From positions 1,344-65,343 of the forward strand of contig JAZKSP010000001.1 of the NCBI GenBank assembly GCA_036626005.1: a stretch of 64,000 nt of DNA, in the 5' to 3' direction. The notes under the pieces are model-generated. The model made no database searches. It saw only the letters and a list, made by a program, of their open reading frames with translations, and was not told the DNA's origin. The DNA is from Thermoplasmatota archaeon (GTDB lineage: Archaea; Thermoplasmatota; Thermoplasmata; Halarchaeoplasmatales; Halarchaeoplasmataceae). This document shows, in pieces, positions 11,113 through 30,492 of the stretch; the first letter of the stretch is position 1; each line of letters begins with the position of its first letter. A program made the position numbers and the translations under genes.

Positions 11113-12161
11113 CCAGTCTCACCTCTATTTCTAACTAAAAGATAGATGAAGAAAGGCGAGCCTAGTAATACCGTAACGATCCCGACGGGTATTTCTCTAA
11201 CGAACTCAATGGGTATTTCCCCCATCATTCTAGAGATAGTGTCGCAAGTTACCAAGAATATGGCACCAAATAGAGCAGAGGTGGGGATCAACTTTTTGTG
11301 ATCGGGTCCGACCATCAATCTAGCGGCGTGGGGCATCATCAGACCCACAAAACCTATGACGCCGGTAAATGCGACCATCGTAGCGGCTAAAAGACTAGAA
11401 GTGAATAGTTGTATCTTTTTAGTCCGTTCCACCTCGACACCCAGCTGCATAGCGGATTCTTCCCCCATCTGGAAAAGATTTAGGTCTTTAGAATATGCAA
11501 AAACTAGGCTTATACCGAGTAACATTATGGGAAGTAATAACAAGACTTCCTTCCAAAGACTATGTTGCAGAGTACCTAACATGAATCGAAGTATCCTCAT
11601 ACGAATTTTTTTTCCCGGAGGACTAATATATCGAATGTAACTAGTCAGACCAGTCATCAAAAAGTTCATGGCCAATCCTGCGAGAAGTAAAGTTGCGATG
11701 TCGGTCTTACCCCTGACTCTTCCTAGAGCGAAAACCAAAATAACTGTCCCTAATGCAGTACCGAATGCAAAGAGGGGGAGTAGGTGGTAGGTCACCCCAA
11801 TAAATATCCCTACGGCGGCTCCCATCCCTCCGCCAGCTGATACGCCTAGTATGAAAGGAGAAGCTAGAGGGTTTTTGAAAACTCCCTGCATGGATGTACC
11901 CGAGACAGCTAAACTAGACCCTACGATCATCCCCATGATGATCCTAGGCAACCTAAGACTGATGACGATGGTTCTGTCTGTTCCCTCAAATGTCGGGAAC
12001 CATTTTCCTACAAGAGGGATTTCAGAAAGGATGATAGCGAGCACTTTTTGGAAAGGTATATCTACAGTGCCTATTGTTGCAGAATAAACTATCACGATGA
12101 ATAGGAGAATAAATAAGAAGAGTATGAATGATTTTGGTTTTTTTCTTATGTTTTCTCTCAT
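11106..12161 (-). CDS. FecCD/BtuC-family ABC permease (iron-chelate or cobalamin uptake)
   Basis: ~9-10 TM helices typical of FecCD permeases. Overlaps both neighbours by a few bp, consistent with an operon. Confidence 0.8.
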   Translation of the reverse strand: MRENIRKKPKSFILFLFILLFIVIVYSATIGTVDIPFQKVLAIILSEIPLVGKWFPTFEGTDRTIVISLRLPRIIMGMIVGSSLAVSGTSMQGVFKNPLASPFILGVSAGGGMGAAVGIFIGVTYHLLPLFAFGTALGTVILVFALGRVRGKTDIATLLLAGLAMNFLMTGLTSYIRYISPPGKKIRMRILRFMLGTLQHSLWKEVLLLLPIMLLGISLVFAYSKDLNLFQMGEESAMQLGVEVERTKKIQLFTSSLLAATMVAFTGVIGFVGLMMPHAARLMVGPDHKKLIPTSALFGAIFLVTCDTISRMMGEIPIEFVREIPVGIVTVLLGSPFFIYLLVRNRGETGW

Positions 12162-13198
12162 GCTTTTATTTTCTTAATCTTTTTTGCTATCGTACACACG
12201 CCTATAGAACCTCCAAGCAATCCAACACTTAAACCGGGTATCTCTTCATAAGCATTCTCTTCGTTTTCTCCGTTGGCTTCTACACTTGTGATAATTTCAG
12301 TTAGATTCTCCTCAGCGTTCACCACCCGTGGTCCAGGGCGGGACATGATATCACTGTTTATATAGTATATCTCGTCGTTCTCTACTGCTGTAATCTCCTG
12401 CCAGGGATCTTCCTTAACAAGATTTTCTAGGTCTTCCTTTAGACGCTCAGTACCGATAATAACTTCAGGATCCTCTGCGACGATCTTTTCTTCGGATATC
12501 ATCCACCATCCGTTTTCTTCTTTTGCTATATTCTGACCCCCTGCTTTCTCTATTAACGTATTTTGGAATGTATTATTCCCAGGGGTATATATAGGATCTA
12601 TCCCGGTTATATAAAAGGTGTCGACTCTTTCTTCCTTTGGCAGGTCTCTAGTATCCTCGGTTATAATGTCCATCTCTGATTTCAAACCATCGACTTTTTC
12701 ATCAGATCTTTCACCGATTCCGCACATTTCTCCTAAAAGTCCCATGTCGGAATAGACATCATCTAACGTTGTAGAGGATGTAGCTACTACCGTAATGTTA
12801 TATTCGTTCAAATTGTTGATCATCTCTGTGTTGTAAAAAGGAGTAACTACAACGTCTGGTTCAAGATCTATTATTTTTTCGTAATCTACGTTGAAAGAGT
12901 CTCCAACTTGGGGAAGATCTTTTACTTCCGGCGGATAGTCACTATGGTCATCTGTAGCGATAATTCTATCGCCTACTTCTAAATGGAAAAGTATCTCGGT
13001 GTTAGAGGGCATGAAAGAGATGATCCTTTCAGGTGGTTCCTCAAAGGTGACTTCAACTCCTCGAGCGTCGATGACGGTTATCTTTGCTGATTCTAGACTT
13101 TCTTCAGATTGGGCGTTCATCACTAGACCGTTTCCGATCAAAACAAACATGATTAGTACACTCAAAAACACAATTAGAAAATTTCGTTTTTCAAACAT
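12158..13198 (-). CDS. ABC transporter substrate-binding protein (BtuF/FepB class III)
   Basis: N-terminal signal/TM segment, class III SBP-like body, and a C-terminal hydrophobic segment with a KKIKKIK tail that may act as a membrane anchor. Confidence 0.7.
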   Translation of the reverse strand: MFEKRNFLIVFLSVLIMFVLIGNGLVMNAQSEESLESAKITVIDARGVEVTFEEPPERIISFMPSNTEILFHLEVGDRIIATDDHSDYPPEVKDLPQVGDSFNVDYEKIIDLEPDVVVTPFYNTEMINNLNEYNITVVATSSTTLDDVYSDMGLLGEMCGIGERSDEKVDGLKSEMDIITEDTRDLPKEERVDTFYITGIDPIYTPGNNTFQNTLIEKAGGQNIAKEENGWWMISEEKIVAEDPEVIIGTERLKEDLENLVKEDPWQEITAVENDEIYYINSDIMSRPGPRVVNAEENLTEIITSVEANGENEENAYEEIPGLSVGLLGGSIGVCTIAKKIKKIKA

Positions 13199-13269
13199 AC
13201 AATTTCCTCCATGTAGATTTACAAAACTAAAAATAACTTTAATTATTTATAATTTGTCTTCCTTATTCA

Positions 13270-13803
13270 CTACTTCTCTATTCCATCCCGCGCTTCTATT
13301 CCTTCCTGGTATGGGTGTTTTATTTCCTTCATCTCAGTAACGAGATCGGCTCTTTCGAGAAGTTCTTCTGGGGCCTTTCTCCCTGTAAAGATCAGTTCTA
13401 CATCATCTGGTTTATTTTCTACCAGCTCCATCATATCTTCTAACTTTAGAAGACTAAAATGATAAGCCACACAAATCTCGTCCGCGATCACAATATCATA
13501 ATCCCCTGAGAGCATGGCTTCGCTTATCTTCTTCAATCCCTCTCTAGCTTCCCTTTTTTCCTCTTCCTTTGGATCCTCCTCTAGATGAAAATCACCACTC
13601 CCGTACTGTTCCATGTCAATCTGGTCTGAAAATCTTTCTAATGCTTTATGTTCTCCATAATCAGGAGTTTTCATGAACTGCCCAATATAGATTTTAAAAC
13701 CTCTTCCGACAGCTCGGACCGCGAGACCTATAGCTGCAGTAGTCTTCCCCTTCCCATCGCCGGTATAAACTTGGACAAGTCCTTTGTCGAGTCCTTCAGT
13801 CAA
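13270..13803 (-). CDS. cobO: Cob(I)alamin adenosyltransferase (CobO/BtuR/CobA type)
   Basis: P-loop VYTGDGKGKTTAAIGLAVRAVGRG and overall similarity to CobA/BtuR. Sits first in the minus-strand transporter operon. Confidence 0.8.
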   Translation of the reverse strand: MTEGLDKGLVQVYTGDGKGKTTAAIGLAVRAVGRGFKIYIGQFMKTPDYGEHKALERFSDQIDMEQYGSGDFHLEEDPKEEEKREAREGLKKISEAMLSGDYDIVIADEICVAYHFSLLKLEDMMELVENKPDDVELIFTGRKAPEELLERADLVTEMKEIKHPYQEGIEARDGIEK

Positions 13804-13918: not shown

Positions 13919-14980
13919 ATGGATTGTTCTAATTATATGAATACTATGAGTTATCGCGAAGATGAGCTAAATCTGCGCTTGCTCAGATATCTATTATCTG
14001 GAGAAGGGGTCCATGTGAATATCAGCAAACTTTCTAGAGAATTAGATATTCATTGGGCGACGGTCAAGAAGAGACTCGAAAACCTTTATGATAATGATTT
14101 GTTGAATCCCCCTTTTTACCCGTTCATTCAATTGTTTGAAGAATATCCTCTCCTTGTTTTAGTAAAAGCTGATATGCCGAGGACTCGAGGCATAAAGAAC
14201 TTTTACCAGGATGACTCCCATATTTTTGCTGCTTTTTCATGTATGGAGGGGTTTTTCAACACCTTTTTGATCGAATACTTCGAAGGGTTGGAGGAGTACC
14301 ACTCATGGAGAGGCGATATCGTAAAGCAGGACAAGATACCGGAAAGAGGGGAAAGAACTCCAGCCCATGCTGAATACTTTAGTAATAGACTGACCTTCAA
14401 ATACGAGCCTACATGTTTCATAGACAAGATGGTGGAGGATTTCGAGGAGAAGGGATTTATCGAACTTGGTGGACAAAAGGTCGATGGAGAGTCTTTTCGA
14501 ATTTTAGAAAAGGTGATGAAAGGGGAGAGTATAAGGACTAATTATTCCTATATAGGACGGGAGATCGGAATTAACAGGAAAACGGTGAAGAGGAGGATCG
14601 ATGATTTATTAGATAAAGATATTATCCAAAAACCGAAGTGCTTTTTCCCGAATCTTTTCGTCCCTCCCGGCTATAATCTCATCATAACTCTGATTGAAGC
14701 CATTTCAGATATAGATGAAATCAAGGAATATCTTGCGAAAGACGAGAACGTCCCTATGGCTATAGAGACCAGTACGGAAAGATATAATTTTCTAGTTTTT
14801 TCCGCCTTTGGAAGTATAGAGGAATTTTTTGACTGGGGCGAAAAACTAAATTCTAAACATCCGGGAAAGATCGGGGCTATATCTAAAACTATTCTTTCTT
14901 CGAAGATGATGCATCTTATAGAACCCCAGAAGGTCTCGCTCGGGTTTATAGAAAACAAGCTTTGGGATCTTAAGAGCTAG
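13919..14980 (+). CDS. Putative transcriptional regulator with two tandem HTH plus Lrp/AsnC-like effector modules
   Basis: Two winged-helix-like segments (ISKLSRELDIHWATVKKRLENL and YIGREIGINRKTVKRRIDDL), each followed by an alpha/beta module resembling a RAM domain. Confidence 0.4.
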   Translation: MDCSNYMNTMSYREDELNLRLLRYLLSGEGVHVNISKLSRELDIHWATVKKRLENLYDNDLLNPPFYPFIQLFEEYPLLVLVKADMPRTRGIKNFYQDDSHIFAAFSCMEGFFNTFLIEYFEGLEEYHSWRGDIVKQDKIPERGERTPAHAEYFSNRLTFKYEPTCFIDKMVEDFEEKGFIELGGQKVDGESFRILEKVMKGESIRTNYSYIGREIGINRKTVKRRIDDLLDKDIIQKPKCFFPNLFVPPGYNLIITLIEAISDIDEIKEYLAKDENVPMAIETSTERYNFLVFSAFGSIEEFFDWGEKLNSKHPGKIGAISKTILSSKMMHLIEPQKVSLGFIENKLWDLKS

Positions 14981-15172: not shown

Positions 15173-16459
15173 ATGGCAGAAGAAGGATATAATCCGTTTA
15201 AGATGGCCCAACAACAGTTCGACAGGATAGCCGAACAATTAGATCTTGATGAGGCGTTGAGAGATCTGCTAAGAGAACCGTTGAGAGAGTATCACTTCAA
15301 CATACCCGTTAAGATGGATGATGGTTCTACAGAGGTTTTCAAGGGATTTAGAGTTCAGCACAATGATGCACTAGGTCCGTGCAAGGGCGGAATAAGATTC
15401 CATCCTGAAGAAACCGGAGATACAGTTAGGGCCCTCGCGATGTGGATGACTTGGAAGACCGCCGTTGCAGACATTCCACTTGGAGGCGGTAAGGGAGGAG
15501 TAATATGCGATCCACATGATCTATCAGATAGGGAACAGGAAAGATTGTGTAGAGAATATATCAAAAAGATAAATAAGAACATAGGACCGCTTCAAGATGT
15601 TCCCGCTCCCGACGTTATGACCAGCCCTCAACACATGCTCTGGATGATGGACGAGTATGAAAACATAGAAGGTGGGAAATATCCAGGAGTTATCACCGGT
15701 AAACCACAAGATATGGGGGGCTCTAAGGGAAGGACGGAAGCTACTGGCTACGGTTTAGTTTACCAGTTGAGAGAACTATTGAAAGAACTCGATAGAGATA
15801 TCGAGAATACTACTGCATCTATTCAAGGCTTTGGAAATGTCGCTCAGTACGCGGCCGAACTCTTCATAGAGTACGGCGGAACAGTCGTCTCAGTATCGTG
15901 CTGGGATCAGGATGATGAAAAAGCTTACAGTTATTACAAGGAAGACGGTATCGATCTTGAAGAATTAAGAGGGATAACTGATCGCTTCGGTTCTATAGAT
16001 AAAGATAAGGCGGAAGAGAAGGGCTATCAATGCCTAGGAGGCGATGAATGGTTAACCCATGAAGTAGACGTTTTGATCCCCGCGGCTCTAGAAAACGCCA
16101 TATCTGAAGACAACGTGCATGATATACCGAACTCTGTTGACATAATAATCTCTGGAGCTAACGGACCTATCACCCCAGAAGCTGACGACGAACTCGAAGA
16201 TAGAGACATCATCGTCGTACCGGACTTCCTGGCTAACGCCGGTGGTGTGATGTGCAGTTATTTCGAGCAGGTTCAGAGTAATCAAAACTACTACTGGTCT
16301 AAGGATGAAGTGTTAGGGAAATTGGACAACGGTATGACAGATGCTTTCTATGAAGTATGGGACCTCGCTCAGAGGAAGGATGTCAGATTGAGAGACGCAG
16401 CTTATATGATCGCTATACAGAGAGTAGCGGAAGCCTGCGAAGCCAGAGGCTGGGTATAA
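15173..16459 (+). CDS. gdhA: Glutamate dehydrogenase (archaeal ~430-aa type)
   Basis: Glu/Leu/Phe/Val dehydrogenase motifs: KGGIRFHP, catalytic GGGKGG, and an NAD(P)-binding GFGNVAQY. Confidence 0.9.
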   Translation: MAEEGYNPFKMAQQQFDRIAEQLDLDEALRDLLREPLREYHFNIPVKMDDGSTEVFKGFRVQHNDALGPCKGGIRFHPEETGDTVRALAMWMTWKTAVADIPLGGGKGGVICDPHDLSDREQERLCREYIKKINKNIGPLQDVPAPDVMTSPQHMLWMMDEYENIEGGKYPGVITGKPQDMGGSKGRTEATGYGLVYQLRELLKELDRDIENTTASIQGFGNVAQYAAELFIEYGGTVVSVSCWDQDDEKAYSYYKEDGIDLEELRGITDRFGSIDKDKAEEKGYQCLGGDEWLTHEVDVLIPAALENAISEDNVHDIPNSVDIIISGANGPITPEADDELEDRDIIVVPDFLANAGGVMCSYFEQVQSNQNYYWSKDEVLGKLDNGMTDAFYEVWDLAQRKDVRLRDAAYMIAIQRVAEACEARGWV

Positions 16460-16481: not shown

Positions 16482-19481
16482 ATGCCCAACAAGATCGAAA
16501 AGATAAGAGAAGCGATCGAAGAAGCGACAGGTAAGTCACCTGAGTTACCGTCTTCAAAAACCCGTTCCAAGGACTTGGAGGCATCATTTATCGATGATGT
16601 CCTCCTCTTTTGCAATTCTTTTGATTATTTTTTAATACAGGAAGAAGGCCGTCTTGATGCTTTGATCGAGGATAAATTTTCCTCTGGAGGACTTAGACAA
16701 CCACCAAAAATTCAGCACGCCGAAACAAAGAAAGAATGCTCAGAAATCCTCAAAAAGTTGGACATAGATATGCTGATAATCTTCGGTACTCCTTTAGAGA
16801 ATGATATTGAGAAATTTTCGCAGTGGCTAGAAACGAGCTGTGAGGAATTACCAGTGGTCTGGATAAGTAATAACGATTCTGACTCTAATACTTCCCTCGA
16901 TGAGAAAATAGAATTCAAGGAAGTTTTCACCTGGAATGGTGACGGAAAAATCATCTTGACGATAATCCAATATATCGAAGACAACATCCGATTCAGGGAA
17001 GATCGTTTCGCAAAAAGAAAACGCCCTATCCTCCTCATCGAAGATTCAAAACAGTACTACTCCACCTATTTGACTCATATTTATGAAGAGATATGGTCTC
17101 ATCTTGATGCTATCCTTCATGAGGATTTGACGAAGGAAAAGAAAATCCAGCGCTATCTGAGAAGGCCTTTCGTTGTTCTTGCCGAGGATATCGATGAAGG
17201 AAGAGAGATTTACACTAAAATTGAGGAGGATCTTTTGTGCGTTATCACGGACAATAGATTGGAAACGGAAGACGGAAATCAGGAAAACGCTGGACTCCAG
17301 TTCGCTGAAGAGATAAAGCGTGACAATCCCGATCTTCCTGTACTTCTCCAATCTTCAGCATCTGTACCAAGTGAAAAAACAGATGAAAAGATTGAGATCG
17401 TGAATAAAAACGACCCCGCTCTCAATCAGGCGATCATTGATTTTATCGATGATAATTTATCCCCTGTAAGTTTAAAAGTTAGATTGGGAGAGGGATTCGA
17501 GGAGATAGAAGTAAAGACTATCGATGAGCTTCAAGAGGTTATCAAAGAGTTAGATGACCAAAAGATCAAAGATCTGATTGAGGACCCCGAGTTTGTCAAA
17601 TGGATGAGAGTTCTCACCGAGTTCGAATTGGCAGATAGCGTGGAAGTTATCAAAGACAACCATATCTCCCCCAGATCATATAGAGAAAAATTGTTAGATC
17701 TTTTAGAAGAATATAGATATGCCGATTATAGTACAGCGGTCACTGATTTTAAAAGAGAGAGGACTGAACCAAAGAACAAAATAAATCGAATAGGTGAAGG
17801 TGCGTTAGGAGGAAAGGCTAGAGGTTTGGCTTTCATATCAAAATTGTTTTCGAAATACCTTTCTGAAGACCTTTTTGAAGATCTAAAGATCACAGTTCCA
17901 AGAACCATCGTTTTGACCTCTGATGTTTTCGACAAATTTTTTGAGGAAAACGAGATAATAGAGTCTCGACTTTTTGAACTCTCGGATGAAAGGATCTCCT
18001 CGAAGTTCATAGATGGGAGTCTTCCCGCGACGATCATTGGCGATCTTCGTTCATTCATTAGAGAAACTCGGAATCCGTTGATCGTTCGGTCATCCGGGTT
18101 GTTAGAAGATTCCCTCACTAGACCATTTGCTGGCGTTTATTCTTCTATGTTCTTACCGAATGAATCGTGGGAGACTAGCCTGAGGTTCAAAGAGGTTTGT
18201 GAAGCGATAAAGCACGTTTACGCATCTACCTTTTTCGAAGAAGCAAGAAATTATCTCAAATCCACGCCTAAGAACATAGGCGATGAAAAGATGTCGGTGA
18301 TTATCCAGGAAGTTGTCGGTGGAAAAAACGGTAAATACTTCTATCCCACGATTTCGGGCGTGGCTAAATCATATAATTATTACACCTCTAAAGGTTGTAA
18401 ACCTGAAGACGGCATTGTCTATCTAGCTCTTGGATTGGGAAAAGAGATAGTGGAAGGTGGCTCTTCTTATTTTTTCTGTCCAGAATGTCCTAAATCTCCC
18501 ATGTTCGGGACTCCTAAAGATTTCGTTCCTCACTCTCAGACCGAATTCTATGCCCTGAATCTTGAGTCTATATACAGAGTAGTAGGAAAAAACGAAGAAT
18601 CTTCTCTAGAAAAGTTAGACATAACTCAGGCGGAGAAACACGGCGTACTCGACAAGATCGCCTCTACGTATTCACCGCGGGACGACCGGCTCTATCCAGG
18701 CATACATAGAGAGGGCTCTAGAGTAATAGATTTTGCACCCATAATAAACTACGATTCAATTCCATTGGCTCAGGCGATAAAAGTACTCATAGATGTATCT
18801 GAGATCGCTTTGGGTTATCCGGTAGAGATCGAGTTCGCCGTTGAATTTGAAGAGGAAGATGATAAACCTGCGAAGTTAGTGGTCCTTCAGATACGTAATA
18901 TGGTCTCAAAAACAGTCTTTCAAGATTTGGATATAGAAGAATGCGACGATGAGAAGTTGGTCTGTCAGAGTGAAAAAGTGTTGGGACACGGGATGCTCAC
19001 AGAGATAGAGGATGTGGTATACATTAAGCCCGGAGCCTTTGACATGAGTAATAGCGAGGATGCCGCTGAAGAGATCAAAAAGATCAATGCCAAACTCAGC
19101 GACGAGGGCAGAGAGTACCTCCTGGTGGGTCCCGGAAGATGGGGAACAACCGATCCCTGGATGGGCATCCCGGTTAGATGGGGAGATATAGCAGGATCGA
19201 AAGTGATCGTAGAGACCCCTACAGAGGGTAGGACCATCGAACCGTCCCAGGGGTCTCATTTCTTCCACGATATGCTGTCCTCTGAAACATGCTATATGGT
19301 AGTTGACGATGAGAACAAAGTTGATTGGGATTGGTTAGAGGAGAAAGAATATCAAAAGGAATTGGAATACGTTAGACATGTCCAACTTGACGAACCGCTG
19401 AAAGTTCAGGTCGATGGTAAAGAGGGAAGAGGGATCATAGAGAAAAAATTACAAAACAGATCTGAAACGAACAATATTTAA
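16482..19481 (+). CDS. Multidomain protein with REC-like receiver domain(s) and a PEP-synthase/PPDK N-terminal ATP-grasp (PEP/pyruvate-binding, PPDK_N) domain; no phosphohistidine or PEP-utilising C-domain
   Basis: aa ~180-310 resemble a CheY-like receiver (PILLIEDS...ITDNRLETEDG...LPVLLQSS). aa ~430-999 match the PpsA N-domain (RIGEGALGGKARGL, IVRSSGLLEDSLTRPFAGVYSSMFLPN, VIIQEVVGG, KLVVLQIRNM). Confidence 0.6.
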   Translation: MPNKIEKIREAIEEATGKSPELPSSKTRSKDLEASFIDDVLLFCNSFDYFLIQEEGRLDALIEDKFSSGGLRQPPKIQHAETKKECSEILKKLDIDMLIIFGTPLENDIEKFSQWLETSCEELPVVWISNNDSDSNTSLDEKIEFKEVFTWNGDGKIILTIIQYIEDNIRFREDRFAKRKRPILLIEDSKQYYSTYLTHIYEEIWSHLDAILHEDLTKEKKIQRYLRRPFVVLAEDIDEGREIYTKIEEDLLCVITDNRLETEDGNQENAGLQFAEEIKRDNPDLPVLLQSSASVPSEKTDEKIEIVNKNDPALNQAIIDFIDDNLSPVSLKVRLGEGFEEIEVKTIDELQEVIKELDDQKIKDLIEDPEFVKWMRVLTEFELADSVEVIKDNHISPRSYREKLLDLLEEYRYADYSTAVTDFKRERTEPKNKINRIGEGALGGKARGLAFISKLFSKYLSEDLFEDLKITVPRTIVLTSDVFDKFFEENEIIESRLFELSDERISSKFIDGSLPATIIGDLRSFIRETRNPLIVRSSGLLEDSLTRPFAGVYSSMFLPNESWETSLRFKEVCEAIKHVYASTFFEEARNYLKSTPKNIGDEKMSVIIQEVVGGKNGKYFYPTISGVAKSYNYYTSKGCKPEDGIVYLALGLGKEIVEGGSSYFFCPECPKSPMFGTPKDFVPHSQTEFYALNLESIYRVVGKNEESSLEKLDITQAEKHGVLDKIASTYSPRDDRLYPGIHREGSRVIDFAPIINYDSIPLAQAIKVLIDVSEIALGYPVEIEFAVEFEEEDDKPAKLVVLQIRNMVSKTVFQDLDIEECDDEKLVCQSEKVLGHGMLTEIEDVVYIKPGAFDMSNSEDAAEEIKKINAKLSDEGREYLLVGPGRWGTTDPWMGIPVRWGDIAGSKVIVETPTEGRTIEPSQGSHFFHDMLSSETCYMVVDDENKVDWDWLEEKEYQKELEYVRHVQLDEPLKVQVDGKEGRGIIEKKLQNRSETNNI

Positions 19482-19528
19482 TAGCGGTTAGTCTAATTAT
19501 AGATTTAATCGGGCAGAGGTGACGAAGT

Positions 19529-22500
19529 ATGGACGATGAAAAAATTGCGAAGACCTTCTCGAAAGGAGCAAATGAAGAGGATCTTGCATCACCCGAGATC
19601 GAAGAGATCGATGAATTGGAAGAACGTATCAAAGAGTTGAATTGCTTTTATAAGATCTCCGAAATTGTAAATGACGCCTCTCTTTCACTAGATGAAGCTT
19701 TACAAAAAATCGTCGAAGTCATCCCTCCGTCCTGGCAGTATCCAGATATTGCTTCGGCCAGAATAAAAATCAGAGAAAAAGAATATACTACAGAGGATTT
19801 TGAAAAAACGGAATGGAAGCAGAGGAGTGATATAACAGTAAAGAGCGAAAAGATCGGCGAGATAAACGTTGTTTACCACGAAGAGAGACCTGAGAAGGAT
19901 GATGGTCCCTTTTTGAAGGAGGAGAGACGCTTGCTCGATACTTTAGCTGATCTTTTAGCTAATTTCGTTCAAGAGGAAACCGGAGGTCGGTTATCTAGGA
20001 AGGAACTGGTATCCGAATCTCCTGAAGAGGAGAAAAAGGATTGGGAGGTCATAATCGATCTTCTTATGCAGACGGACCCTAGGACTTTACTTAGGATAAC
20101 AAGGAAGATGGTGTATTATCTTTATAGAAATGAGAACGAGAGAGTGCAATCTCTCCTTGATGATGTGTGTCCCGCTGACGGGAGCGAAGAAGCTCCAAAA
20201 TGGTGCGGTATAAATATGCCGAACCCAAAACAGGATATTGACTCTTTAAGAGAGGTCCAGAGGGAAGTATTTCAGATCGCTAAGGAAGATCTAGACCCCG
20301 AACGGATATCAGATCTCTTCCACAGATGGTTGAAAGAGGATAAGGCCCGCCCATTGTTGATAGCATCACAAAGAAGAGGCACCCCCCTGGTAGAGATCAA
20401 GGAAGAATTGAATAGGTTTTTCAGAAAACCGGAGTCTGAGAAGGTACTTTCTGACGAGGATAAAATGAGCATACGGACCGAGCTAATCCAGCGATTTTTT
20501 ACTGATAGATTGGATTTTGTGAATGTCGCTAAGAAATATATCAAGGTGGACGATTACGAGCCCTTGATTCAGAAGATAGTGGGGCCGGCTCGTGGTGCAG
20601 GTAAATTAGGAGGCAAAGCTTCAGGAGCTTACCTTGCTCATAAGATCATACAGGAAGAATTCGATGATGAGTTCACAAAAGAAATAGGATTCCCCAAAAG
20701 TTGGTACATAACCTCAGATACACTTATGGACCTGATCCATTATAATGATCTTGACGAACTTATCCATGTCAAATATTTAGATCCGGATGAAATCAGGCAT
20801 GAAGAGCCGTTTTTGGAACAATTGATGAAAAATGCAATGTTCCCCTCAGAGATAGTGGAAGGGCTAAAGAAGATTCTAAGGGATTTAGAGGGAAAACCGA
20901 TTATTGTCAGATCTTCTAGTCTCCTAGAGGATAACTTCGGCGCGGCTTTTTCCGGCAAATACAAGAGCCTTTTCCTTCCCAATAAAGGGAGTGAAGAGGA
21001 AAGGTTGGAGGAATTAATGAACGCTATCGCCGAGGTCTATGCATCTACTTTCTCAGCTGATCCTATAGAATATCGAAGGGAACGTGGTCTTTTGGACTTC
21101 AGTGAGGAAATGGGTATCCTGATCCAGGAGGTTGTCGGTACAGAGATTGGAAACTACTATCTTCCTACTTATGGAGGTGTGGCATTCAGTAAGAACGAGT
21201 TCAGATGGTCCCCTAGAATTGGGAGAGACGATGGAGTCATCAGGATAGTCCCCGGGCTCGCTACCAGAGCTGTAGATAGGATCGGAGATGATTATCCCAT
21301 ACTCGCTTCTCCTAACAGACCTAATTTACGGGTAAATTCGACTGTAGAAGAACGGGTTAGATACTCTCCGAGATATATGGACGTGATCAACCTAGAAACA
21401 GAACAGATGGAAACCGTTGAAGTAGATAACTTCCTTCAGGAGCACGCCAATGAGTTTCCCAATCTAGAAAAAATGGTTTCCTTGTATGAAAACGGGAATC
21501 TAAAGACACCTTCAGGAGTGATACTCAGTCCTGAAAAGGAGGATATGGTTGTTACCTTCTCTAAACTTTTCGATAAAACTGATTTCCTCCCCAAGATGAA
21601 TCAGATATTGAGAAAACTTGAAGAAAAAATAGGTTATCCAGTAGACGTCGAATTTGCTTTTGACGGTGAAAAACTTTATATTGTCCAGTGTAGACCTCAG
21701 AGTCAGGCTTTGGATAGAGAGAGAGTGAAGATACCAAGGGACATAAAAGAAAATAGAAAGTTATTCTCTGCGAATAAATACGTTACTACAGGCAATTTAG
21801 AAAACCTTGAGTATATTGTTTATGTGGTCCCCGGGGAGTACTCGAAACTTGAGAGCAGAGAAAAAATGCAGCAAACAGCTCAGATTGTAGGTGAACTAAA
21901 CAAAGAGTTACCAGAGCAAAAATTCATCCTCATGGGCCCCGGCAGATGGGGAAGTCGAGGAGACATCAAACTTGGAGTTCCGGTGAAATATAGAGAGATA
22001 AACAATACCGCTTTGCTAGTAGAAGTCGCGAAGGAAAGAGGTGGTTATGAACCCGAACTATCTTTTGGTACACACTTTTTCCAAGATCTGGTTGAAGCAG
22101 ATATCAAATATTTACCTCTGTATCCTGAGGAGGAAGAGAATATCTGGAAAGAAGAGATGTTTTTCAGGTCGGAAAACAAATTAACGGACTTTCTGCCCAG
22201 ATATGAAGATTTCGAAGACGTGATCAGAGTGGTCGACGTGAGTGACATAAGTAAAGGCGGAACTCTCACGGTGACTATGGACGGCGAGGCAAATCAGGCC
22301 TTAGCCTATTTGGAACCTTCGGATCATTGGGAATGGAGGATGAAAAAAGTCAAACAGATGGCTAGGGAATTAGACCCGGAAGTGTATGATGTAGAAGCGC
22401 TTTACGTGGTGGGTAGTACGAAAGAAGCGACTGCAGGTCCTGAGAGCGATATAGATATAATAGTCCATTTTGATGGTGATGAAGAGCAAAAGGAGAAGCT

Positions 22501-22696
22501 TGATAATTGGTTCCAGAGATGGGATCAGAGGCTAATCCAGGAGAACGAGCAGCGGATCGGAAAAAGGCTCGATAGTATACTAGATGTTCATTACATCACG
22601 GCCGAAGATATAGAAGAGGAGAGTTCTTGGGCATCTCATATAACTTCAAGATATAAATCAGCTAGAAAAATACCTGTAGGCCGTGACCAAGAGTGA
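19529..22696 (+). CDS. Multidomain paralog: GAF-like N-terminal sensor, PPDK_N ATP-grasp domain and a C-terminal minimal nucleotidyltransferase (Pol-beta-like)
   Basis: N-terminus LNCFYKISEI...ERRLLDTLADLLANFV looks GAF-like. PPDK_N motifs GPARGAGKLGGKASG, IIVRSSSLLEDNFGAAFSGKYKSLFLPN, LIQEVVGTE. C-terminus ALYVVGSTKEATAGPESDIDIIVHFDGD is a GS..(D/E)xD minimal-NTase motif. Confidence 0.6.
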   Translation: MDDEKIAKTFSKGANEEDLASPEIEEIDELEERIKELNCFYKISEIVNDASLSLDEALQKIVEVIPPSWQYPDIASARIKIREKEYTTEDFEKTEWKQRSDITVKSEKIGEINVVYHEERPEKDDGPFLKEERRLLDTLADLLANFVQEETGGRLSRKELVSESPEEEKKDWEVIIDLLMQTDPRTLLRITRKMVYYLYRNENERVQSLLDDVCPADGSEEAPKWCGINMPNPKQDIDSLREVQREVFQIAKEDLDPERISDLFHRWLKEDKARPLLIASQRRGTPLVEIKEELNRFFRKPESEKVLSDEDKMSIRTELIQRFFTDRLDFVNVAKKYIKVDDYEPLIQKIVGPARGAGKLGGKASGAYLAHKIIQEEFDDEFTKEIGFPKSWYITSDTLMDLIHYNDLDELIHVKYLDPDEIRHEEPFLEQLMKNAMFPSEIVEGLKKILRDLEGKPIIVRSSSLLEDNFGAAFSGKYKSLFLPNKGSEEERLEELMNAIAEVYASTFSADPIEYRRERGLLDFSEEMGILIQEVVGTEIGNYYLPTYGGVAFSKNEFRWSPRIGRDDGVIRIVPGLATRAVDRIGDDYPILASPNRPNLRVNSTVEERVRYSPRYMDVINLETEQMETVEVDNFLQEHANEFPNLEKMVSLYENGNLKTPSGVILSPEKEDMVVTFSKLFDKTDFLPKMNQILRKLEEKIGYPVDVEFAFDGEKLYIVQCRPQSQALDRERVKIPRDIKENRKLFSANKYVTTGNLENLEYIVYVVPGEYSKLESREKMQQTAQIVGELNKELPEQKFILMGPGRWGSRGDIKLGVPVKYREINNTALLVEVAKERGGYEPELSFGTHFFQDLVEADIKYLPLYPEEEENIWKEEMFFRSENKLTDFLPRYEDFEDVIRVVDVSDISKGGTLTVTMDGEANQALAYLEPSDHWEWRMKKVKQMARELDPEVYDVEALYVVGSTKEATAGPESDIDIIVHFDGDEEQKEKLDNWFQRWDQRLIQENEQRIGKRLDSILDVHYITAEDIEEESSWASHITSRYKSARKIPVGRDQE

Positions 22697-22715
22697 GGTT
22701 AAAGTTATCAACTTC

Positions 22716-23573
22716 TTAGATCTCGACTAGTGTTCTGATCGAGTTTTCCAATACTTCAGTATCGAATCTAATGATGGACAGTTCAGACCCATTATGCACA
22801 CCAGTAAAAGAATGAGTTTCTCCGATCATCTCACTCCACTCGCCGGTGATATCTACTGTTTCATGGACATGGCCGTGGAGAGTAACGAGAGGTTGTTTTT
22901 CCTTTATGAACCTCTTGATCGCTATACTCCCAACATGGTTATCTATTGGGGCGTGATCTATCATTTTATCGTCAAGAGCTGCTCTGTCCAAGGAAGTATC
23001 GTAGGGGGGTGAGTGGAATAGGTAGATAGTCTTTTTTGGATGTGAGTTCTCTATCAGTTCCTCTAAGTCGTTTTCTATCGTAGAATATTTCTTTTCATAG
23101 TTTGATACATCGACTGTTCTTGTTCCTTTTTCCGGTGAAACCGCACCTATTCCCACGTATCTTGAAACGTCATATTTTTCCCAATCTTTGAGATGGAACG
23201 GTGTTGGAGGGACGAAGTTGTATCCTGTGACATGTAGATCTCTAAATCTTTTAGTAGATGCGTGAACATAATCAATGAGGTTTTTTTCGTCCATTTCTTT
23301 CAAAGCATTTTCGTATATTCTTGGATCATCATTACCCATTATCACAAATATCTCTAAATCCTCTACAGCACTTTTTACATTTTCAATCTGGTCGGATAAA
23401 AACCCTCTTAGAAATTCATCACCTTCAGTATCCACTTTCAATGATGATGGCAAGAGATCTCCTCCAAGAAATAGTCCGTCTGGAGATTCATCTTTTACGA
23501 TCTCGAACAACTTCCTGTATTTTTTCTTTTTTCCGTGAAGGTCTGAAGTAAAGATGCAGTTCAGAATTAACAC
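22716..23573 (-). CDS. Calcineurin-like metallophosphoesterase
   Basis: MPP motifs DLHG, GGDLL, GNDD, HSPP and GHVHE. Confidence 0.7.
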   Translation of the reverse strand: MLILNCIFTSDLHGKKKKYRKLFEIVKDESPDGLFLGGDLLPSSLKVDTEGDEFLRGFLSDQIENVKSAVEDLEIFVIMGNDDPRIYENALKEMDEKNLIDYVHASTKRFRDLHVTGYNFVPPTPFHLKDWEKYDVSRYVGIGAVSPEKGTRTVDVSNYEKKYSTIENDLEELIENSHPKKTIYLFHSPPYDTSLDRAALDDKMIDHAPIDNHVGSIAIKRFIKEKQPLVTLHGHVHETVDITGEWSEMIGETHSFTGVHNGSELSIIRFDTEVLENSIRTLVEI

Positions 23574-23775: not shown

Positions 23776-25140
<1,365 letters not shown>

Positions 25141-25356: not shown

Positions 25357-25908
25357 CTATGACTTCACATTTAATCTGATCTTGTGTTTGTTCATCTCAA
25401 TGTCAGCTGAAATATTTGAGTTCTCTATATATCCTTCTAGAAATATTTTTAAATATTCTGCCATATCTGGTATCATCGGAATAATAGTGAAGTTATCTTC
25501 TGATTCTACGATCAATCTAAATAGATTCGTTTTTTCCAACCGATTTAGGCATTTCATGGGTTCCGCTATTCCCTTCTTACAGTAACTCAAATAGAATTCG
25601 CCGCCGATTTTCTTTAATTCTTCTTTCAGTTTCTCTGAGGGTTCACCTATTTCCTGTAAAAATGCCTGAAAAATTCCTATATCGAACAGAAGGTTGTCCG
25701 GTCTCATCCGTAGATCCAATATCGTTTCTAGTTCCTCTGGGGAGAGATTTTCTTTGTCTAAGACCACCTCTAAATACCCGAGCGCTCTGCGAACAACTTC
25801 TGATTTTGAAGTCCTAAGTTCGGATTCGATATCTTCCAACCTATCTAAACTTTCAGGATCCAGATTGACCGTCACTCTTTCGTTAGTCTTCTTTTCTTTT
25901 GGAGGCAT
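25357..25908 (-). CDS. Ribbon-helix-helix (CopG/Arc-like) domain protein with an uncharacterised C-terminal domain
   Basis: N-terminus ERVTVNLDPESLDRLEDIE...SKSEVVRRALGYL fits a beta-strand plus two helices of an RHH. The remaining ~120 aa have no recognisable family. Confidence 0.45.
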   Translation of the reverse strand: MPPKEKKTNERVTVNLDPESLDRLEDIESELRTSKSEVVRRALGYLEVVLDKENLSPEELETILDLRMRPDNLLFDIGIFQAFLQEIGEPSEKLKEELKKIGGEFYLSYCKKGIAEPMKCLNRLEKTNLFRLIVESEDNFTIIPMIPDMAEYLKIFLEGYIENSNISADIEMNKHKIRLNVKS

Positions 25909-26103: not shown

Positions 26104-28331
<2,228 letters not shown>

Positions 28332-29907: not shown

Positions 29908-30492
29908 ATGGAATTAGAATGTGAAAATTGTGGATATGAATGGGATTATCAGGGCGAAGTTGAAGAGTACGCAGTATGCCCGGAATGTGATTATGAGATG
30001 GAGATACCGGCGGAAGCCGAAGTCATCGCACCCGAGAGAGATATAGAGAGTATTCTTGAACAATACTCTCAAGATCCGAGTTCTCTCATACCGATACTTC
30101 AGGAGACTCAGGAACAGTACGGTTATCTCCCTAGAGACGTCATCGAAAGCATAGCTGAATATTTAGAACTGCCTGTTAGCAAGATTTACGGGGTCGCTAC
30201 TTTTTATGCGCAGTTCAGGTTCGAACCCCAGGGCGAACATGTCGTTAGGATCTGCCACGGTACCGCCTGCCATGTTCAGGGGGCTGAAGGGATAACTGAT
30301 GCGGTCGAAGATACATTGGACATAGATACCGGAGAGACTACAGATGACGGGATTTTCACGTTGGAAAGAGTAGCCTGTCTAGGATGCTGCAGTCTAGCAC
30401 CAGTTATTATGGTCAACGATACTGCCCATGGGAACTTGACAAGAGAGAAAGCTAAGGAGGTCCTCGAAAAATACAGGGGGAATAACACGTGA
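29908..30492 (+). CDS. NuoE-like [2Fe-2S] thioredoxin-fold subunit with the N-terminal zinc-ribbon module (copy 3) fused
   Basis: N-terminus [16 protein letters not shown]...[10 protein letters not shown], followed by NuoE/HoxE motifs [14 protein letters not shown] and [16 protein letters not shown]. Confidence 0.75.

Follow-up and report, generated by a model that had tools for sequence, protein, structure and literature searches.

A tandem pair of ATP-grasp proteins that, with a linked glutamate dehydrogenase and a metallophosphoesterase, probably forms an undescribed ATP-driven system

Several described systems share parts with the locus analysed here. PEP synthase and PPDK combine an N-terminal PPDK_N ATP-grasp with a central swivel domain and a C-terminal PEP/pyruvate TIM barrel. 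The barrel is missing from rifampin phosphotransferase (RPH), HpeHI, phenylphosphate synthase, PigC and RedH; in RPH, the ATP-grasp and the swivel domain do not adjoin each other. MntA, of the type VII toxin-antitoxin system MntA-HepT, is a protein AMPylase that AMPylates its protein partner, while GlnE and GlnD are sensor-bearing nucleotidyltransferases (NTases) of the Pol-beta superfamily encoded with nitrogen-assimilation genes; they control glutamine synthetase and PII. PleD joins a REC-REC pair to a GGDEF output domain. In HpeHI, the ATP-grasp and the swivel/substrate parts reside on separate, cooperating polypeptides, which provides a precedent for split, multi-component dikinases (PMC12167813). 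In EI-Ntr (PtsP), glutamine bound to the GAF domain controls autophosphorylation of the swivel histidine (PMC4848567).

Our analysis of a window of 64,000 nucleotides from a Thermoplasmatota archaeon reveals two adjacent genes, A and B, whose products probably work together with a glutamate dehydrogenase (GDH1) and a metallophosphoesterase (MPP) in a so far undescribed system that is driven by ATP and linked to glutamate dehydrogenase. No description of this A/B architecture was found in the literature, in agreement with the first-pass annotation of the window. Both open reading frames (999 and 1055 aa) are present where that annotation had placed them, and coordinates and Pfam agree with the MPP gene and the GDH genes on both flanks that it reported. 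GDH1 ends 22 bp upstream of A, the MPP gene is convergent with B across a gap of 19 bp after the B stop codon, and GDH2 begins 232 bp from the MPP start. The features are as follows:

13919-14980, + strand: double winged-helix HTH protein upstream of GDH1; several HTH Pfam matches
15173-16459, + strand: GDH1, cluster-specific hexameric-type glutamate dehydrogenase (ELFV_dehydrog_N and ELFV_dehydrog), first gene of the conserved module
16482-19481, + strand: protein A (999 aa); REC-like domain, REC, linker, PPDK_N ATP-grasp, C-module
16596-16997, + strand: A 39-172, first receiver-fold domain, probable pseudo-receiver (AF2 beta-alpha pattern, Foldseek)
17025-17459, + strand: A 182-326, receiver domain (weak Pfam Response_reg, AF2 fold, Foldseek, conserved residues)
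17781-18911, + strand: A 434-810, PPDK_N-type ATP-grasp (Pfam, invariant columns, Foldseek)
18945-19451, + strand: A 822-990, C-module and beta-rich tail, candidate divergent phosphohistidine swivel domain (motifs, AF2 secondary structure)
19529-22696, + strand: protein B (1055 aa); GAF, helical domain, PPDK_N ATP-grasp, C-module, MNT-type nucleotidyltransferase
19613-19978, + strand: B 29-150, GAF sensor domain; a conserved helix (ER.KELnC.y) lies ahead of it
20039-20572, + strand: B 171-348, all-helical domain (AF2 secondary structure), possibly acceptor- or partner-binding
20594-21751, + strand: B 356-741, PPDK_N-type ATP-grasp with intact motifs
21752-22318, + strand: B 742-930, C-module and beta-rich tail, candidate swivel phosphohistidine domain (motifs, Foldseek)
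22328-22672, + strand: B 934-1048, minimal MNT/Pol-beta type nucleotidyltransferase (Pfam, NCBIfam, Foldseek, conserved motifs)
22716-23573, - strand: metallophosphoesterase (285 aa; Pfam Metallophos), last gene of the module
23806-25140, + strand: GDH2, ordinary NADP-type glutamate dehydrogenase, accessory neighbour

The PPDK_N ATP-grasp attributed to both proteins is readily recovered by Pfam (residues 441-810 of A, E 1.5e-35; residues 360-741 of B, E 8e-56), and the A domain matches RPH (5hv3) in Foldseek with an E value of 8e-8. The same motifs as in PEP synthase and PPDK are intact in A (GGK445, VR536SS, E542/D543, IQ609EVV, E782/E784 and Q803/R805, all in invariant columns) and in B (GGK363, VR461SSSLLED, IQ533EVVG, D706xE708 and Q720xR722), and the catalytic residues are invariant in the A and B families alike. 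Neither protein has a Pfam match to PEP-utilizers or PEP-utilizers_C, and the PEP/pyruvate C-domain is thus absent from both, as previously claimed. Since they lack the TIM barrel, A and B are neither PEP synthase nor PPDK, and PEP synthesis is not possible; their NCBIfam equivalog scores (12-61 bits) fall far below the cutoffs of 456-843. The labels 'pyruvate, water dikinase' and 'pyruvate, phosphate dikinase' appear on some family members in public annotations, and PADLOC gives weak matches to the candidate systems PDC-S09 and PDC-S10 (NTase, MPP). However, the view that the pair represents ordinary or degenerate paralogues of these dikinases, or an MNT-based toxin-antitoxin or defence element, lying by chance beside gdh is practically refuted by the domain content, the NCBIfam scores and the GDH1 synteny described below. 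There is neither a HEPN partner nor a mobile-element context, and a mean column identity of 73% in B, which indicates strong purifying conservation, together with strict synteny across phyla, argues against decay or chance adjacency.

Directly after the ATP-grasp, A and B share a module of about 130-170 aa (the C-module; 28% identity between the two over this region) that is placed like the central swivel domain of PEP synthase and PPDK. In A it contains GPGRWG, IVE and SQGSH926FFHD (His codon 19257-19259), and the beta-rich tail ends in '...VQVDGKEGRG'; in B it contains GPGRWGS, LLVE832 and LSFGTH849FFQDLVE (His codon 22073-22075). The GxGRWG, E and SxGxHFF elements are ~100% conserved in 153 copies, and no member of this A/B-type PPDK_N subfamily, which comprises 1813 clusters at 50% identity, lacks the module. 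In the AF2 models, its secondary structure elements follow the order of the PPDK central swivel domain, and the histidine of the invariant G-[ST]-H-F-F lies at the amino terminus of a helix, after a beta-strand and a loop; the pLDDT of this His loop is below 50 in the model of B. Foldseek aligns A and B with full-length PPDK over 680-744 columns (700-744 for B) and with RPH over about 400. Pfam returned nothing for PF00391 at E values up to 10, a C-module profile had no match to PDB sequences, and hhalign against PPDK swivel sequences gave a probability of 0.1-0.2%. The C-module of A and B is a candidate divergent phosphohistidine swivel domain. The argument that A and B have no swivel domain and hence cannot be dikinases is therefore doubtful in view of the invariant histidine, the PPDK-like order and the long structural alignments, although PF00391 goes undetected, and excluding dikinase chemistry for them is not justified.

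Protein B adds a sensor and a nucleotidyltransferase, and the annotation of both was well founded. Its amino-terminal region has a GAF fold, a type that is also found shuffled onto some long A paralogues. EI-Ntr likewise carries an amino-terminal GAF domain on an enzyme of the same superfamily, one that autophosphorylates on histidine, and is likewise linked to nitrogen metabolism; however, its donor is PEP, used through the PEP-utilizers_C barrel, while the donor of A/B would be ATP, used through the ATP-grasp, and HPr/NPr or EIIA partners are missing from the A/B module, which has an MPP and a fused NTase domain. The carboxy-terminal domain of B matches Pfam NTP_transf_2 (residues 939-1037; E 8e-9, 36.2 bits, cutoff 21) and, weakly, NCBIfam MntA (E 2.5e-4). 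It contains the motif G962-S963-x10-D974-I-D976 (GS-x10-DIDIIV) and D1019/H1021, conserved across archaea and bacteria, and its Foldseek matches are MntA (7bxo, 6m6w), MNT (8xeo, 8xeh) and HI0073 (1no5). Fold and motifs thus resemble MntA, but the B domain has no HEPN partner, is fused to a 930-aa enzyme and occurs in a housekeeping or metabolic context. The likeness to GlnE and GlnD is conceptual: B could reversibly modify a central enzyme of ammonium/glutamate metabolism. No NCBIfam match to GlnE or GlnD was found; the B domain is of the MNT type (~110 aa), removal would be carried out by a separate MPP and not by a second NTase or an HD domain, and no such control is known for GDH, the presumed target.

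The NTase may alternatively be read as the centre of the module, driven or gated by the ATP-grasp/His units and producing a nucleotide second messenger or attaching a nucleotide to a small molecule; MPP would degrade the product, while GDH1 would do no more than share its regulation or respond to the product allosterically. The Pol-beta-type motifs are intact, and the pairing of NTase-bearing B genes with MPP genes is conserved, the two overlapping by 4 bp in several bacteria. Some MPP families are phosphodiesterases that cleave cyclic or linear nucleotides, and the MPP of this locus (Pfam Metallophos, E 4.6e-11) conserves the metal motifs DxHG, GGD, GNDD, LFH and GHxHE in 58 orthologues; no close solved structure of it was found. 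We nevertheless consider a nucleotide signal quite improbable, as the NTase lacks the extra domains of CD-NTases and OAS, the structures closest to it are adenylyltransferases that act on proteins or antibiotics, it is missing from some family members, among them all A proteins and the minimal B-core protein P0275, and two ATP-grasp/His units would be left unexplained.

The receiver domains of A were only partly evident to Pfam, which places Response_reg at residues 235-295 below threshold (15.7-19.3 bits, where the cutoff is 30.2). The AF2 model, however, contains two flavodoxin-like domains (39-172 and 182-326), and Foldseek matches the region to the REC-REC of PleD and to the tandem receivers of 3mf4; model, matches and conserved residues together uphold the tandem receiver folds proposed for A. 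The second domain has the canonical E187-D188, D257, S291 and K309, invariant in 48 homologues, with D257 (codon 17250-17252) as the putative phospho-acceptor; these residues are kept in 20 of 21 archaeal and all ten bacterial long A proteins. The first domain has invariant W151, G153 and D154 and, in the homologue alignment, no equivalent of the DD pair or phospho-acceptor. Without an acidic pocket, it is probably a pseudo-receiver. The amino-terminal 330 aa of A thus match the PleD and 3mf4/3luf arrangement of one canonical and one degenerate receiver, but differ in a long insertion in alpha-1, in scoring below the Pfam threshold and in being joined to an ATP-grasp/His enzyme.

The first-pass annotation took sensor and response-regulator logic as the organising principle. 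In a scheme of this kind, B would take the place of a histidine kinase, autophosphorylating and passing the phosphoryl group to the receiver aspartate of A, which would then serve as the response regulator. The complete set of receiver residues, the GAF sensor of B, the invariant histidine in both proteins as a possible donor and the chemically ordinary nature of His-to-Asp transfer are consistent with this idea, as is the lack of a recurrent histidine kinase gene in the surroundings. Yet the REC region is absent from the A orthologue in 40 of 41 bacterial cases in which the module is otherwise intact, and some loci contain GDH1 and B without A, so that REC cannot be the core acceptor and is better seen as a lineage-specific add-on to A. 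Long A also has its own ATP-grasp and His module and is not a mere receiver, and orphan receivers are often served by distant kinases or acetyl-phosphate. A two-component system built on the ATP-grasp is therefore improbable.

A survey of genomes confirmed that A and B co-occur beside gdh and MPP genes. More than 1000 full-length homologues were found for A (45-81% identity across Thermoplasmatota); B has more than 2900 homologues, of which more than 1000 are full-length, occurs with its full architecture in more than ten bacterial phyla at 42-45% identity, and is encoded in at least 545 species-representative genomes. Eighty loci, from Thermoplasmatota and over ten bacterial phyla, keep the gene order GDH1-A-B-MPP; all carriers are uncultured MAGs. 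With so many full-length homologues of each protein and a neighbourhood kept across domains of life, conservation of the module is far beyond chance. An A-like gene lies upstream of B in 61 of 69 loci. In 30 of 44 bacterial loci the stop of A overlaps the start of B (by exactly 4 bp in 16), and fusions of a short A to B exist (P0241-P0243); both observations speak for an A-B partnership. GDH1 is upstream on the same strand in 60 of 63 loci (archaeal 20/20, bacterial 40/43), and MPP lies directly downstream of B in 57 of 70 (archaeal 19/22, bacterial 38/48), co-directional in some bacteria and not convergent as here. The functional link to GDH, originally offered as inference, thus has strong comparative support.

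GDH1 is related to the Thermococcus enzyme 1euz (418 bits) and scores under the NCBIfam GdhA_Arch cutoff (481 against 750). Linked orthologues are 58-94% identical and, in 65 of 65 cases, contain a 6-aa insertion, [SC]W[DN]Qx[DE], that is found neither in 1euz nor in 17 of the 18 remaining GDH paralogues of these loci. By sequence, the linked GDH1s are a distinct subfamily with a signature insertion, which lies beside the dinucleotide-binding strand and may signal altered substrate or cofactor use. No modification site was identified in GDH1; the best-conserved new residue is the tryptophan, and nearby Tyr252 is only ~70% conserved.

Adjacency to GDH1 fits metabolic coupling equally well. A and B could each be one subunit of a dikinase comparable to RPH, HpeHI, phenylphosphate synthase or PigC, which would phosphorylate a small metabolite tied to the GDH reaction (2-oxoglutarate, glutamate or a derivative) bound by the helical domain of B, with NTase and MPP processing or recycling a phosphorylated intermediate and an unmodified GDH1 supplying or removing substrate. 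The proteins share the missing barrel with these enzymes and probably the chemistry, from ATP to histidine to acceptor; NCBIfam matches the amino termini of Rph, PigC and RedH, and two-component small-molecule dikinases exist (PMC12167813). The helical domain, which has no family match in Pfam, has invariant W172, D183-P184, R192-K193-M194 and GIxMPN232, is kept in P0275 and is possibly an acceptor- or partner-binding domain. Tight operon coupling with an enzyme, as is typical of pathways, and the position of the GDH1 insertion also favour such a complex. However, a RIF-binding-type substrate domain is unrecognisable in A/B (NCBIfam Rph 46.9 bits, cutoff 999), and, unlike RPH, they have extensive insertions in the His module (GPGRWG...), a pair of complete units of ATP-grasp and His module that are proposed to work together, and an obligatory GDH and MPP context. 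The fused GAF, REC and MNT-type NTase domains, the last with nearest relatives that modify proteins, are more typical of signalling; further pathway enzymes, or indeed any further gene families, do not recur in the loci, and no known metabolite fits. On balance we regard a metabolic complex as unlikely, if a serious contender.

Our preferred reading, to which we give a probability of roughly 40%, is a heteromeric, sensor-controlled system of ATP-dependent phosphotransfer and nucleotidyl transfer that acts on or with GDH1, with MPP as the eraser. A and B would be paralogues within the PEP-synthase/PPDK/RPH superfamily that have lost the barrel and the rifampin-type substrate domain, each keeping an ATP-grasp followed by a swivel-like module with an invariant histidine (H926, H849). 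Acting as a heteromer, they may phosphorylate this histidine from ATP by dikinase chemistry and hand the phosphoryl group to an acceptor held in trans, while the NTase of B would supply a second, nucleotidyl-transfer activity. By analogy with the GAF domains of NifA and EI-Ntr, the GAF of B would gate activity, probably in response to a metabolite of carbon or nitrogen status such as 2-oxoglutarate or glutamine, and in Thermoplasmatota phosphorylation of D257 could act as an additional gate. The most likely acceptor or partner would be GDH1, encoded directly upstream in the same operon, its activity being switched by reversible phosphorylation and/or nucleotidylylation and the modification stripped by MPP. 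We know of no covalent regulation of a prokaryotic hexameric GDH by such enzymes, and two intact ATP-grasps plus an NTase exceed the catalytic machinery needed by a simple writer.

The two remaining neighbours are less widely kept. GDH2 (NCBIfam PRK09414, 761 bits, cutoff 536) lacks the GDH1 insertion and, being present in only 12 of 53 long loci (7/15 archaeal, 5/38 bacterial), is not a core member, contrary to the suggestion that both flanking GDHs could be targets. The double winged-helix HTH protein, which has an orthologue encoded upstream of GDH1 in 13 loci of Thermoplasmatota and in no bacterial locus, is a candidate lineage-specific transcription regulator of the operon.

Two adjacent paralogous genes built on a PPDK_N ATP-grasp, encoding proteins of 999 (A) and 1055 (B) residues, form the centre of a block that also contains a convergent metallophosphoesterase gene (MPP) and two glutamate dehydrogenase genes, one directly upstream of A (GDH1) and one about 230 bp past MPP (GDH2). 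The positions and arrangement agree with those reported in the first-pass annotation, and the block reads as follows in window coordinates:

13919-14980, + strand, HTH protein of 353 aa with two winged-helix regions, 190 bp upstream of GDH1
15173-16459, + strand, GDH1, ending 22 bp upstream of A
16482-19481, + strand, A, 999 aa
19529-22696, + strand, B, 1055 aa
22716-23573, - strand, MPP, convergent, 19 bp past the B stop
23806-25140, + strand, GDH2, starting 232 bp beyond the MPP start

Pfam searches place PPDK_N (PF01326) at residues 441-810 of A (E 1.5e-35) and 360-741 of B (E 8e-56), both ELFV domains in GDH1 (E 8.5e-57 and 5.4e-73) and in GDH2, and Metallophos (PF00149) in MPP (43.9 bits; cutoff 21.5). 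Thirteen Thermoplasmatota loci, but no bacterial locus, have an orthologue of the HTH protein (52-85% identity) at this position, and it is a candidate for a lineage-specific regulator of operon transcription. A promoter/terminator scan, by a method not designed for archaea, gave counts equal to the shuffled expectation.

The block is widely distributed. B has at least 545 matches among GTDB contigs (one genome per species), all carriers of A and B being MAGs. Its full-length architecture is kept in Thermoplasmatota at 57-89% identity, and residues 27-1050 align at 42-45% identity in bacteria that include Acidobacteriota, Cloacimonadota, Aminicenantes, Spirochaetaceae, Ignavibacteria, Bacteroidales, Eisenbacteria, Planctomycetota, Calditrichota, Zixibacteria and Clostridia. 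The neighbourhood of B was surveyed by tblastn of the window proteins against 80 fetched loci.

Neighbours of B in the 80 fetched loci. These loci are the best-scoring subset of the 545 or more matches, and the frequencies are perhaps somewhat optimistic for distant members.
A-like gene directly upstream of B: archaea 20/20; bacteria 41/49
GDH1 orthologue (58-94% identity) upstream, same strand: archaea 20/20; bacteria 40/43
MPP directly downstream of B: archaea 19/22, all convergent; bacteria 38/48 (27 convergent, 11 co-directional)
GDH2 within long loci: archaea 7/15; bacteria 5/38

The pair and its neighbourhood are thus conserved in both domains of life, and the A-B genes have an obligate context of GDH1 and MPP. 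The suggestion that the flanking dehydrogenases could both be regulated targets has comparative support for GDH1, which recurs, but not for GDH2, which is present in only 12 of the 53 long loci and was rejected as a core member. All-against-all clustering of 2980 ORFs from the 80 loci yielded no other recurring neighbour besides the archaeal HTH regulator; histidine kinases, PII proteins and transporters do not recur, and the remaining recurrent 'families' are antisense shadow ORFs. That the block has some trivial explanation appears extremely improbable. The B genes of two loci labelled Aenigmatarchaeota (L003) and Planctomycetota (L020) are Thermoplasmatota-like (77% and 55% identity, respectively, compared with ~44% for true bacterial orthologues); mis-binning of these contigs is a more probable cause than recent transfer.

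A and B function together, and their linkage is physical or genetic. The bacterial A stop and B start overlap in 30 of 44 loci, by exactly 4 bp in 16 (with the ORF starts of these loci assigned mechanically), and co-directional B and MPP genes show a 4-bp overlap in 4/9. Three homologous proteins of 1520-1650 aa (P0241, P0242 and P0243; locus L070, 2719-7632) are fusions of a short A, a form that lacks the receiver (REC) region, to a full-length B; such fusions are convenient to express, since they provide the complex as one chain. In a few loci GDH1 is followed directly by B. Domain shuffling also links the two paralogues to a common signal: the homologues P0294 (1524 aa) and P0318 (1145 aa), both of the long-A type, carry three copies and one copy, respectively, of the B-type GAF domain, and therefore the same sensor module has been exchanged between the paralogues. 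Another homologue, P0275, consists of the B core (172-931) without GAF or nucleotidyltransferase (NTase) domains, and in P0249 (1484 aa) two B-like cores lie in tandem.

A and B are not ordinary PEP synthases or PPDKs, because they have no Pfam match to PEP-utilizers or PEP-utilizers_C and score low against the NCBIfam models. In particular, Pfam gives no match in A or B to PEP-utilizers_C (PF02896, the TIM barrel), and the best scores are 61 bits against PEP synthase (cutoffs 598-740) and 12 bits against PPDK (cutoff 843), far under the equivalog cutoffs. Across the PEP synthase, PPDK and rifampin phosphotransferase (RPH) models the scores are 12-61 bits against cutoffs of 456-999, with the N-terminal ATP-grasp alone covered. 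The ATP-grasp itself is RPH-like; the RIF_Ptrans_rph equivalog reaches 46.9 bits (cutoff 999) over the N-terminal part only, with no RIF-binding-like substrate domain. No GlnE or GlnD model is among the NCBIfam or Pfam matches, and no HEPN gene occurs in the module, whose recurring families in the 80 loci are GDH, the A/B family and MPP only. A and B thus fall outside PEP synthase/PPDK (no TIM barrel), RPH (no substrate domain), GlnE/GlnD, MNT-HEPN toxin-antitoxin systems and EI-Ntr. A defence or toxin-antitoxin reading was also rejected, the PADLOC matches being weak and generic (NTase, MPP).

Of particular interest is the region that follows PPDK_N in both proteins. A 438-939 and B 356-862 align at 28% identity over ~520 residues (E 4e-50), and this alignment extends ~130 residues past PPDK_N into a common C-module in which GPGRWG, S-x-G-[ST]-H-F-F and a Glu are invariant. 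When 1.84 billion representatives were searched with a profile, 1813 clusters with the C-module were recovered (1380 at E <= 1e-10), and PPDK_N is present in every cluster examined. The R, W, E, S, G, H and FF positions are 99-100% conserved among 153 copies, so that each protein carries a module with an invariant His (H926 in A, H849 in B). The GPGRWG...G[ST]HFF module is a newly defined conserved domain.

Several lines of evidence relate the C-module to phosphohistidine chemistry. The swivelling phosphohistidine domain of PPDK, PEP synthase and EI has the order G.A.G hairpin, ILV..T.P, GI.T..GG.TSHAA helix, P.V.G and ...V.VDG..G. In both AF2 models the C-module begins with a beta-hairpin, a helix, a strand (F/YxL(M/V)GP), a loop, a strand (xxVE) and a second loop, and ends with a helix starting at the invariant His, a strand and a beta tail terminating in '..V.(V/M)DG..'; the modelled secondary-structure order would accordingly be that of the swivelling domain, and the module lies exactly where that domain lies in PPDK and PEP synthase. 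It is followed by a short beta tail in A and by the NTase in B. Foldseek aligns both models to full-length PPDK over 680-744 columns, as opposed to ~400 for RPH, in which the rifampin-binding domain lies between the ATP-grasp and the swivel domain. In the whole-model Foldseek searches, ATP-grasp, GAF and REC matches take up the top ranks, and the His loop is of low confidence in the B model.

Sequence comparisons of the module gave little signal. Isolated C-modules have no PF00391 match up to E 10, the module profile found no significant match among PDB sequences (only spurious longin matches at E ~0.2), and hhalign against the PPDK swivel (with one, then five sequences) gave a probability of 0.1-0.2%, with agreeing register. 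This absence of signal is weak evidence, because in a calibration a genuine RPH swivel domain reached only E 0.15 with the PPDK swivel query. We consider the C-module to be probably a divergent phospho-His module, as yet unproven. The first-pass annotation had argued that the proteins lack a phosphohistidine domain and so cannot be dikinases; this argument fails, given the invariant-His module in the swivel position and the PPDK-length Foldseek alignments.

The main rival reading is that A and B make up a small-molecule dikinase complex whose substrate is a metabolite related to GDH. A and B are structurally akin to RPH and HpeI, and two-component small-molecule dikinases are on record (PMC12167813). 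We regard this reading as unlikely, although it is the strongest of the competitors; if the role is metabolic, it implies a phosphorylated metabolite, so far not known, linked to glutamate or 2-oxoglutarate.

The remaining domains of A suggest a regulatory input. The AF2 model of A (48-sequence alignment, mean pLDDT 77.8) is of moderate quality, with unreliable domain orientations; it contains two flavodoxin-like alpha/beta domains (39-172 and 182-326), followed by a small linker domain (331-416), the ATP-grasp (434-810) and the C-terminal module (822-990). Every catalytic motif of the ATP-grasp is invariant in 48 homologues, and the ATP-grasp sites of A and B are both intact. The two N-terminal domains match the tandem receivers of PleD and 3mf4/3luf with probability 1.0 (Foldseek), which bears out the earlier assignment of one or two receivers. 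In the second, E187-D188, D257, S291/S292 and K309 are invariant or near-invariant in 48 homologues and kept in 20/21 archaeal and 10/10 bacterial long (REC-bearing) A proteins. Despite a sub-threshold Pfam Response_reg score (15.7-19.3 bits; gathering score 30.2), it is a bona fide, canonical receiver with a phospho-acceptor Asp; PF00072 is precomputed in a few A homologues. In the first domain the acidic pocket is missing, which makes it a probable pseudo-receiver.

A receiver beside an invariant His raises the possibility of a His-to-Asp two-component system built on an ATP-grasp. Such a system may be an extra regulatory layer in Thermoplasmatota, but it cannot be the core function because the receiver is missing from most bacterial modules: the bacterial A orthologue is short in 40 of 41 cases (~580-600 aa, aligning to A ~420-990 only, that is, ATP-grasp and C-module), and nine bacterial loci have an extra long, REC-bearing paralogue nearby. 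As the core activity we therefore consider it quite improbable. The sensor and response-regulator logic first proposed for the pair is thus right as to its parts, a canonical receiver and a GAF domain, but not as the core of the system.

B contributes a sensor and a second catalytic domain; its AF2 model (mean pLDDT 73.1) is likewise of moderate quality with unreliable domain orientations. The N-terminal domain has the GAF fold, as the first-pass annotation had suggested, though no Pfam GAF-family match appears up to E 10. It is preceded by a helix (residues 29-44, window 19613-19660) with the motif ER.KELnC.y, whose C39 is invariant in 48 archaeal homologues and kept in bacteria; this helix may serve in redox sensing or in dimerisation. 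A conserved, all-helical domain with no recognisable relatives spans residues 171-348. The C-terminus contains NTP_transf_2 (939-1037, E 8e-9, 36.2 bits; cutoff 21), which together with PPDK_N in both proteins and the absence of PEP-utilizers_C agrees with the domain assignments made from inspection. Residues 934-1048 match MntA/MNT minimal nucleotidyltransferase structures (Foldseek), and the NTase is intact, G962-S963-x10-D974-x-D976 and D1019 being invariant and kept in bacterial orthologues. A nucleotide-signal module is another reading of the cluster, which we rate as slightly more improbable than the His-to-Asp system. The metal site of MPP is also intact, the motifs DxHG, GGD, GNDD, LFH and GHxHE being kept in 58 orthologues.

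GDH1 is the most conserved member of the block, with archaea-bacteria identity (tblastn) of ~65% compared with 40-48% for A, B and MPP. By sequence it is predicted to be a hexameric GDH of the Pyrococcus/Thermococcus type: the PLGGGKGG motif with the catalytic lysine is present and kept, and the match to 1euz is 418 bits, the NCBIfam GdhA_Arch score (481 bits) being under its equivalog cutoff of 750. All 65 cluster-linked GDH1 orthologues share a six-residue insertion, [SC]-W-[DN]-Q-x-[DE] (residues 241-246, window 15893-15910), directly after the VxxVS strand of the dinucleotide-binding domain and followed by a mostly conserved Tyr. The insertion is absent from 17/18 other GDH paralogues in the same loci and from 1euz, and GDH1 is a distinct subfamily marked by it. 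Possible roles for it are docking, modification or a change in cofactor binding. The overall pattern would be that expected of a dedicated partner or target isoform; it points to no modification site.

The most far-reaching reading, at a probability of about 0.3, is a previously unrecognised post-translational control of GDH across both domains, in which a GAF/REC-gated ATP-grasp/phospho-His heteromer and the MNT NTase would mark a dedicated GDH isoform and the partner MPP would erase the mark. The A-B heteromer would autophosphorylate the C-module His from ATP, and an acceptor in trans would receive the phosphoryl group. The NifA GAF domain binds 2-oxoglutarate, and by analogy with NifA and EI-Ntr the GAF domain would gate A-B activity on a C/N-status ligand; in EI-Ntr, glutamine bound to the GAF domain inhibits autophosphorylation of the swivel His (PMC4848567). 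The A-B enzyme would then be an ATP-driven analogue of Enzyme I-Ntr. The NTase of B would attach a nucleotidyl group, much as MntA modifies its protein partner, with GDH1 as the putative target and MPP as the putative eraser. We infer function throughout, and prefer this mechanism as a whole to its rivals only tentatively, at somewhat less than even odds.

All of the parts come from known superfamilies (dikinase ATP-grasp, GAF, REC, MNT NTase, MPP and GDH). What is new is the architecture, the GPGRWG...G[ST]HFF module, the paired-paralogue organisation and the strictly conserved coupling of A-B to a dedicated GDH isoform and MPP. The initial impression that the architecture is undescribed stands: no prior description of it or of the cluster was found in the literature, and the public names of members are generic ('PEP/pyruvate-binding domain-containing protein' only). 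The resemblance to GlnE/GlnD is conceptual only. Glutamate dehydrogenase stands at the junction of carbon and nitrogen metabolism and serves as the key exit in organisms that ferment amino acids, among them sediment Thermoplasmatota, Cloacimonadota, Aminicenantes and Acidobacteriota, and we know of no dedicated covalent control system for a prokaryotic GDH. The four genes of the module, which encode a special GDH, two dikinase-like enzymes (one with the NTase) and an MPP, stay linked in archaea and in more than 10 bacterial phyla; the module is represented in at least 545 species-representative genomes and by ~1,800 protein clusters (50% identity). Should its role be to regulate GDH, the module would be a new layer of nitrogen control and a new output for dikinase/phospho-His chemistry. 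It would then do for GDH what GlnE/GlnD do for glutamine synthetase, and would be the first dikinase-family member directed at a protein outside the PTS. Either way, the analysis corrects a widespread mis-annotation as PEP synthase or PPDK.

Other genes in the window include a corrinoid uptake/salvage cluster at 11106-13803 (-) (FecCD permease, Peripla_BP_2 binding protein and ATP:corrinoid adenosyltransferase), which has no relation to the A-B finding, and a ribbon-helix-helix (CopG-like) protein of 183 aa downstream of GDH2 (25357-25908, -), which is not kept in related loci. At 26104-28331 (-), overlapping genes encode a GltD/NfnB/SudA-like protein with Fer4_20 and Pyr_redox_2 domains (470 aa) and a DHODB-type Fe-S/FAD subunit (282 aa); the pair resembles an NfnAB-type or sulfide-dehydrogenase-like NAD(P)H:ferredoxin oxidoreductase, compatible with NAD(P)H balancing around the GDH reaction. 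In addition, 30489-35198 (+) encodes two proteins: a NuoF-like flavoprotein of 585 aa and, after it, one of 983 aa in which 2Fe-2S, GltD-like Pyr_redox_2 and Nqo3-like ferredoxin domains are fused. A related, Fer2_4-led protein was found again in 11 fetched loci, and these genes may be an electron-bifurcating module that is frequently near the cluster.
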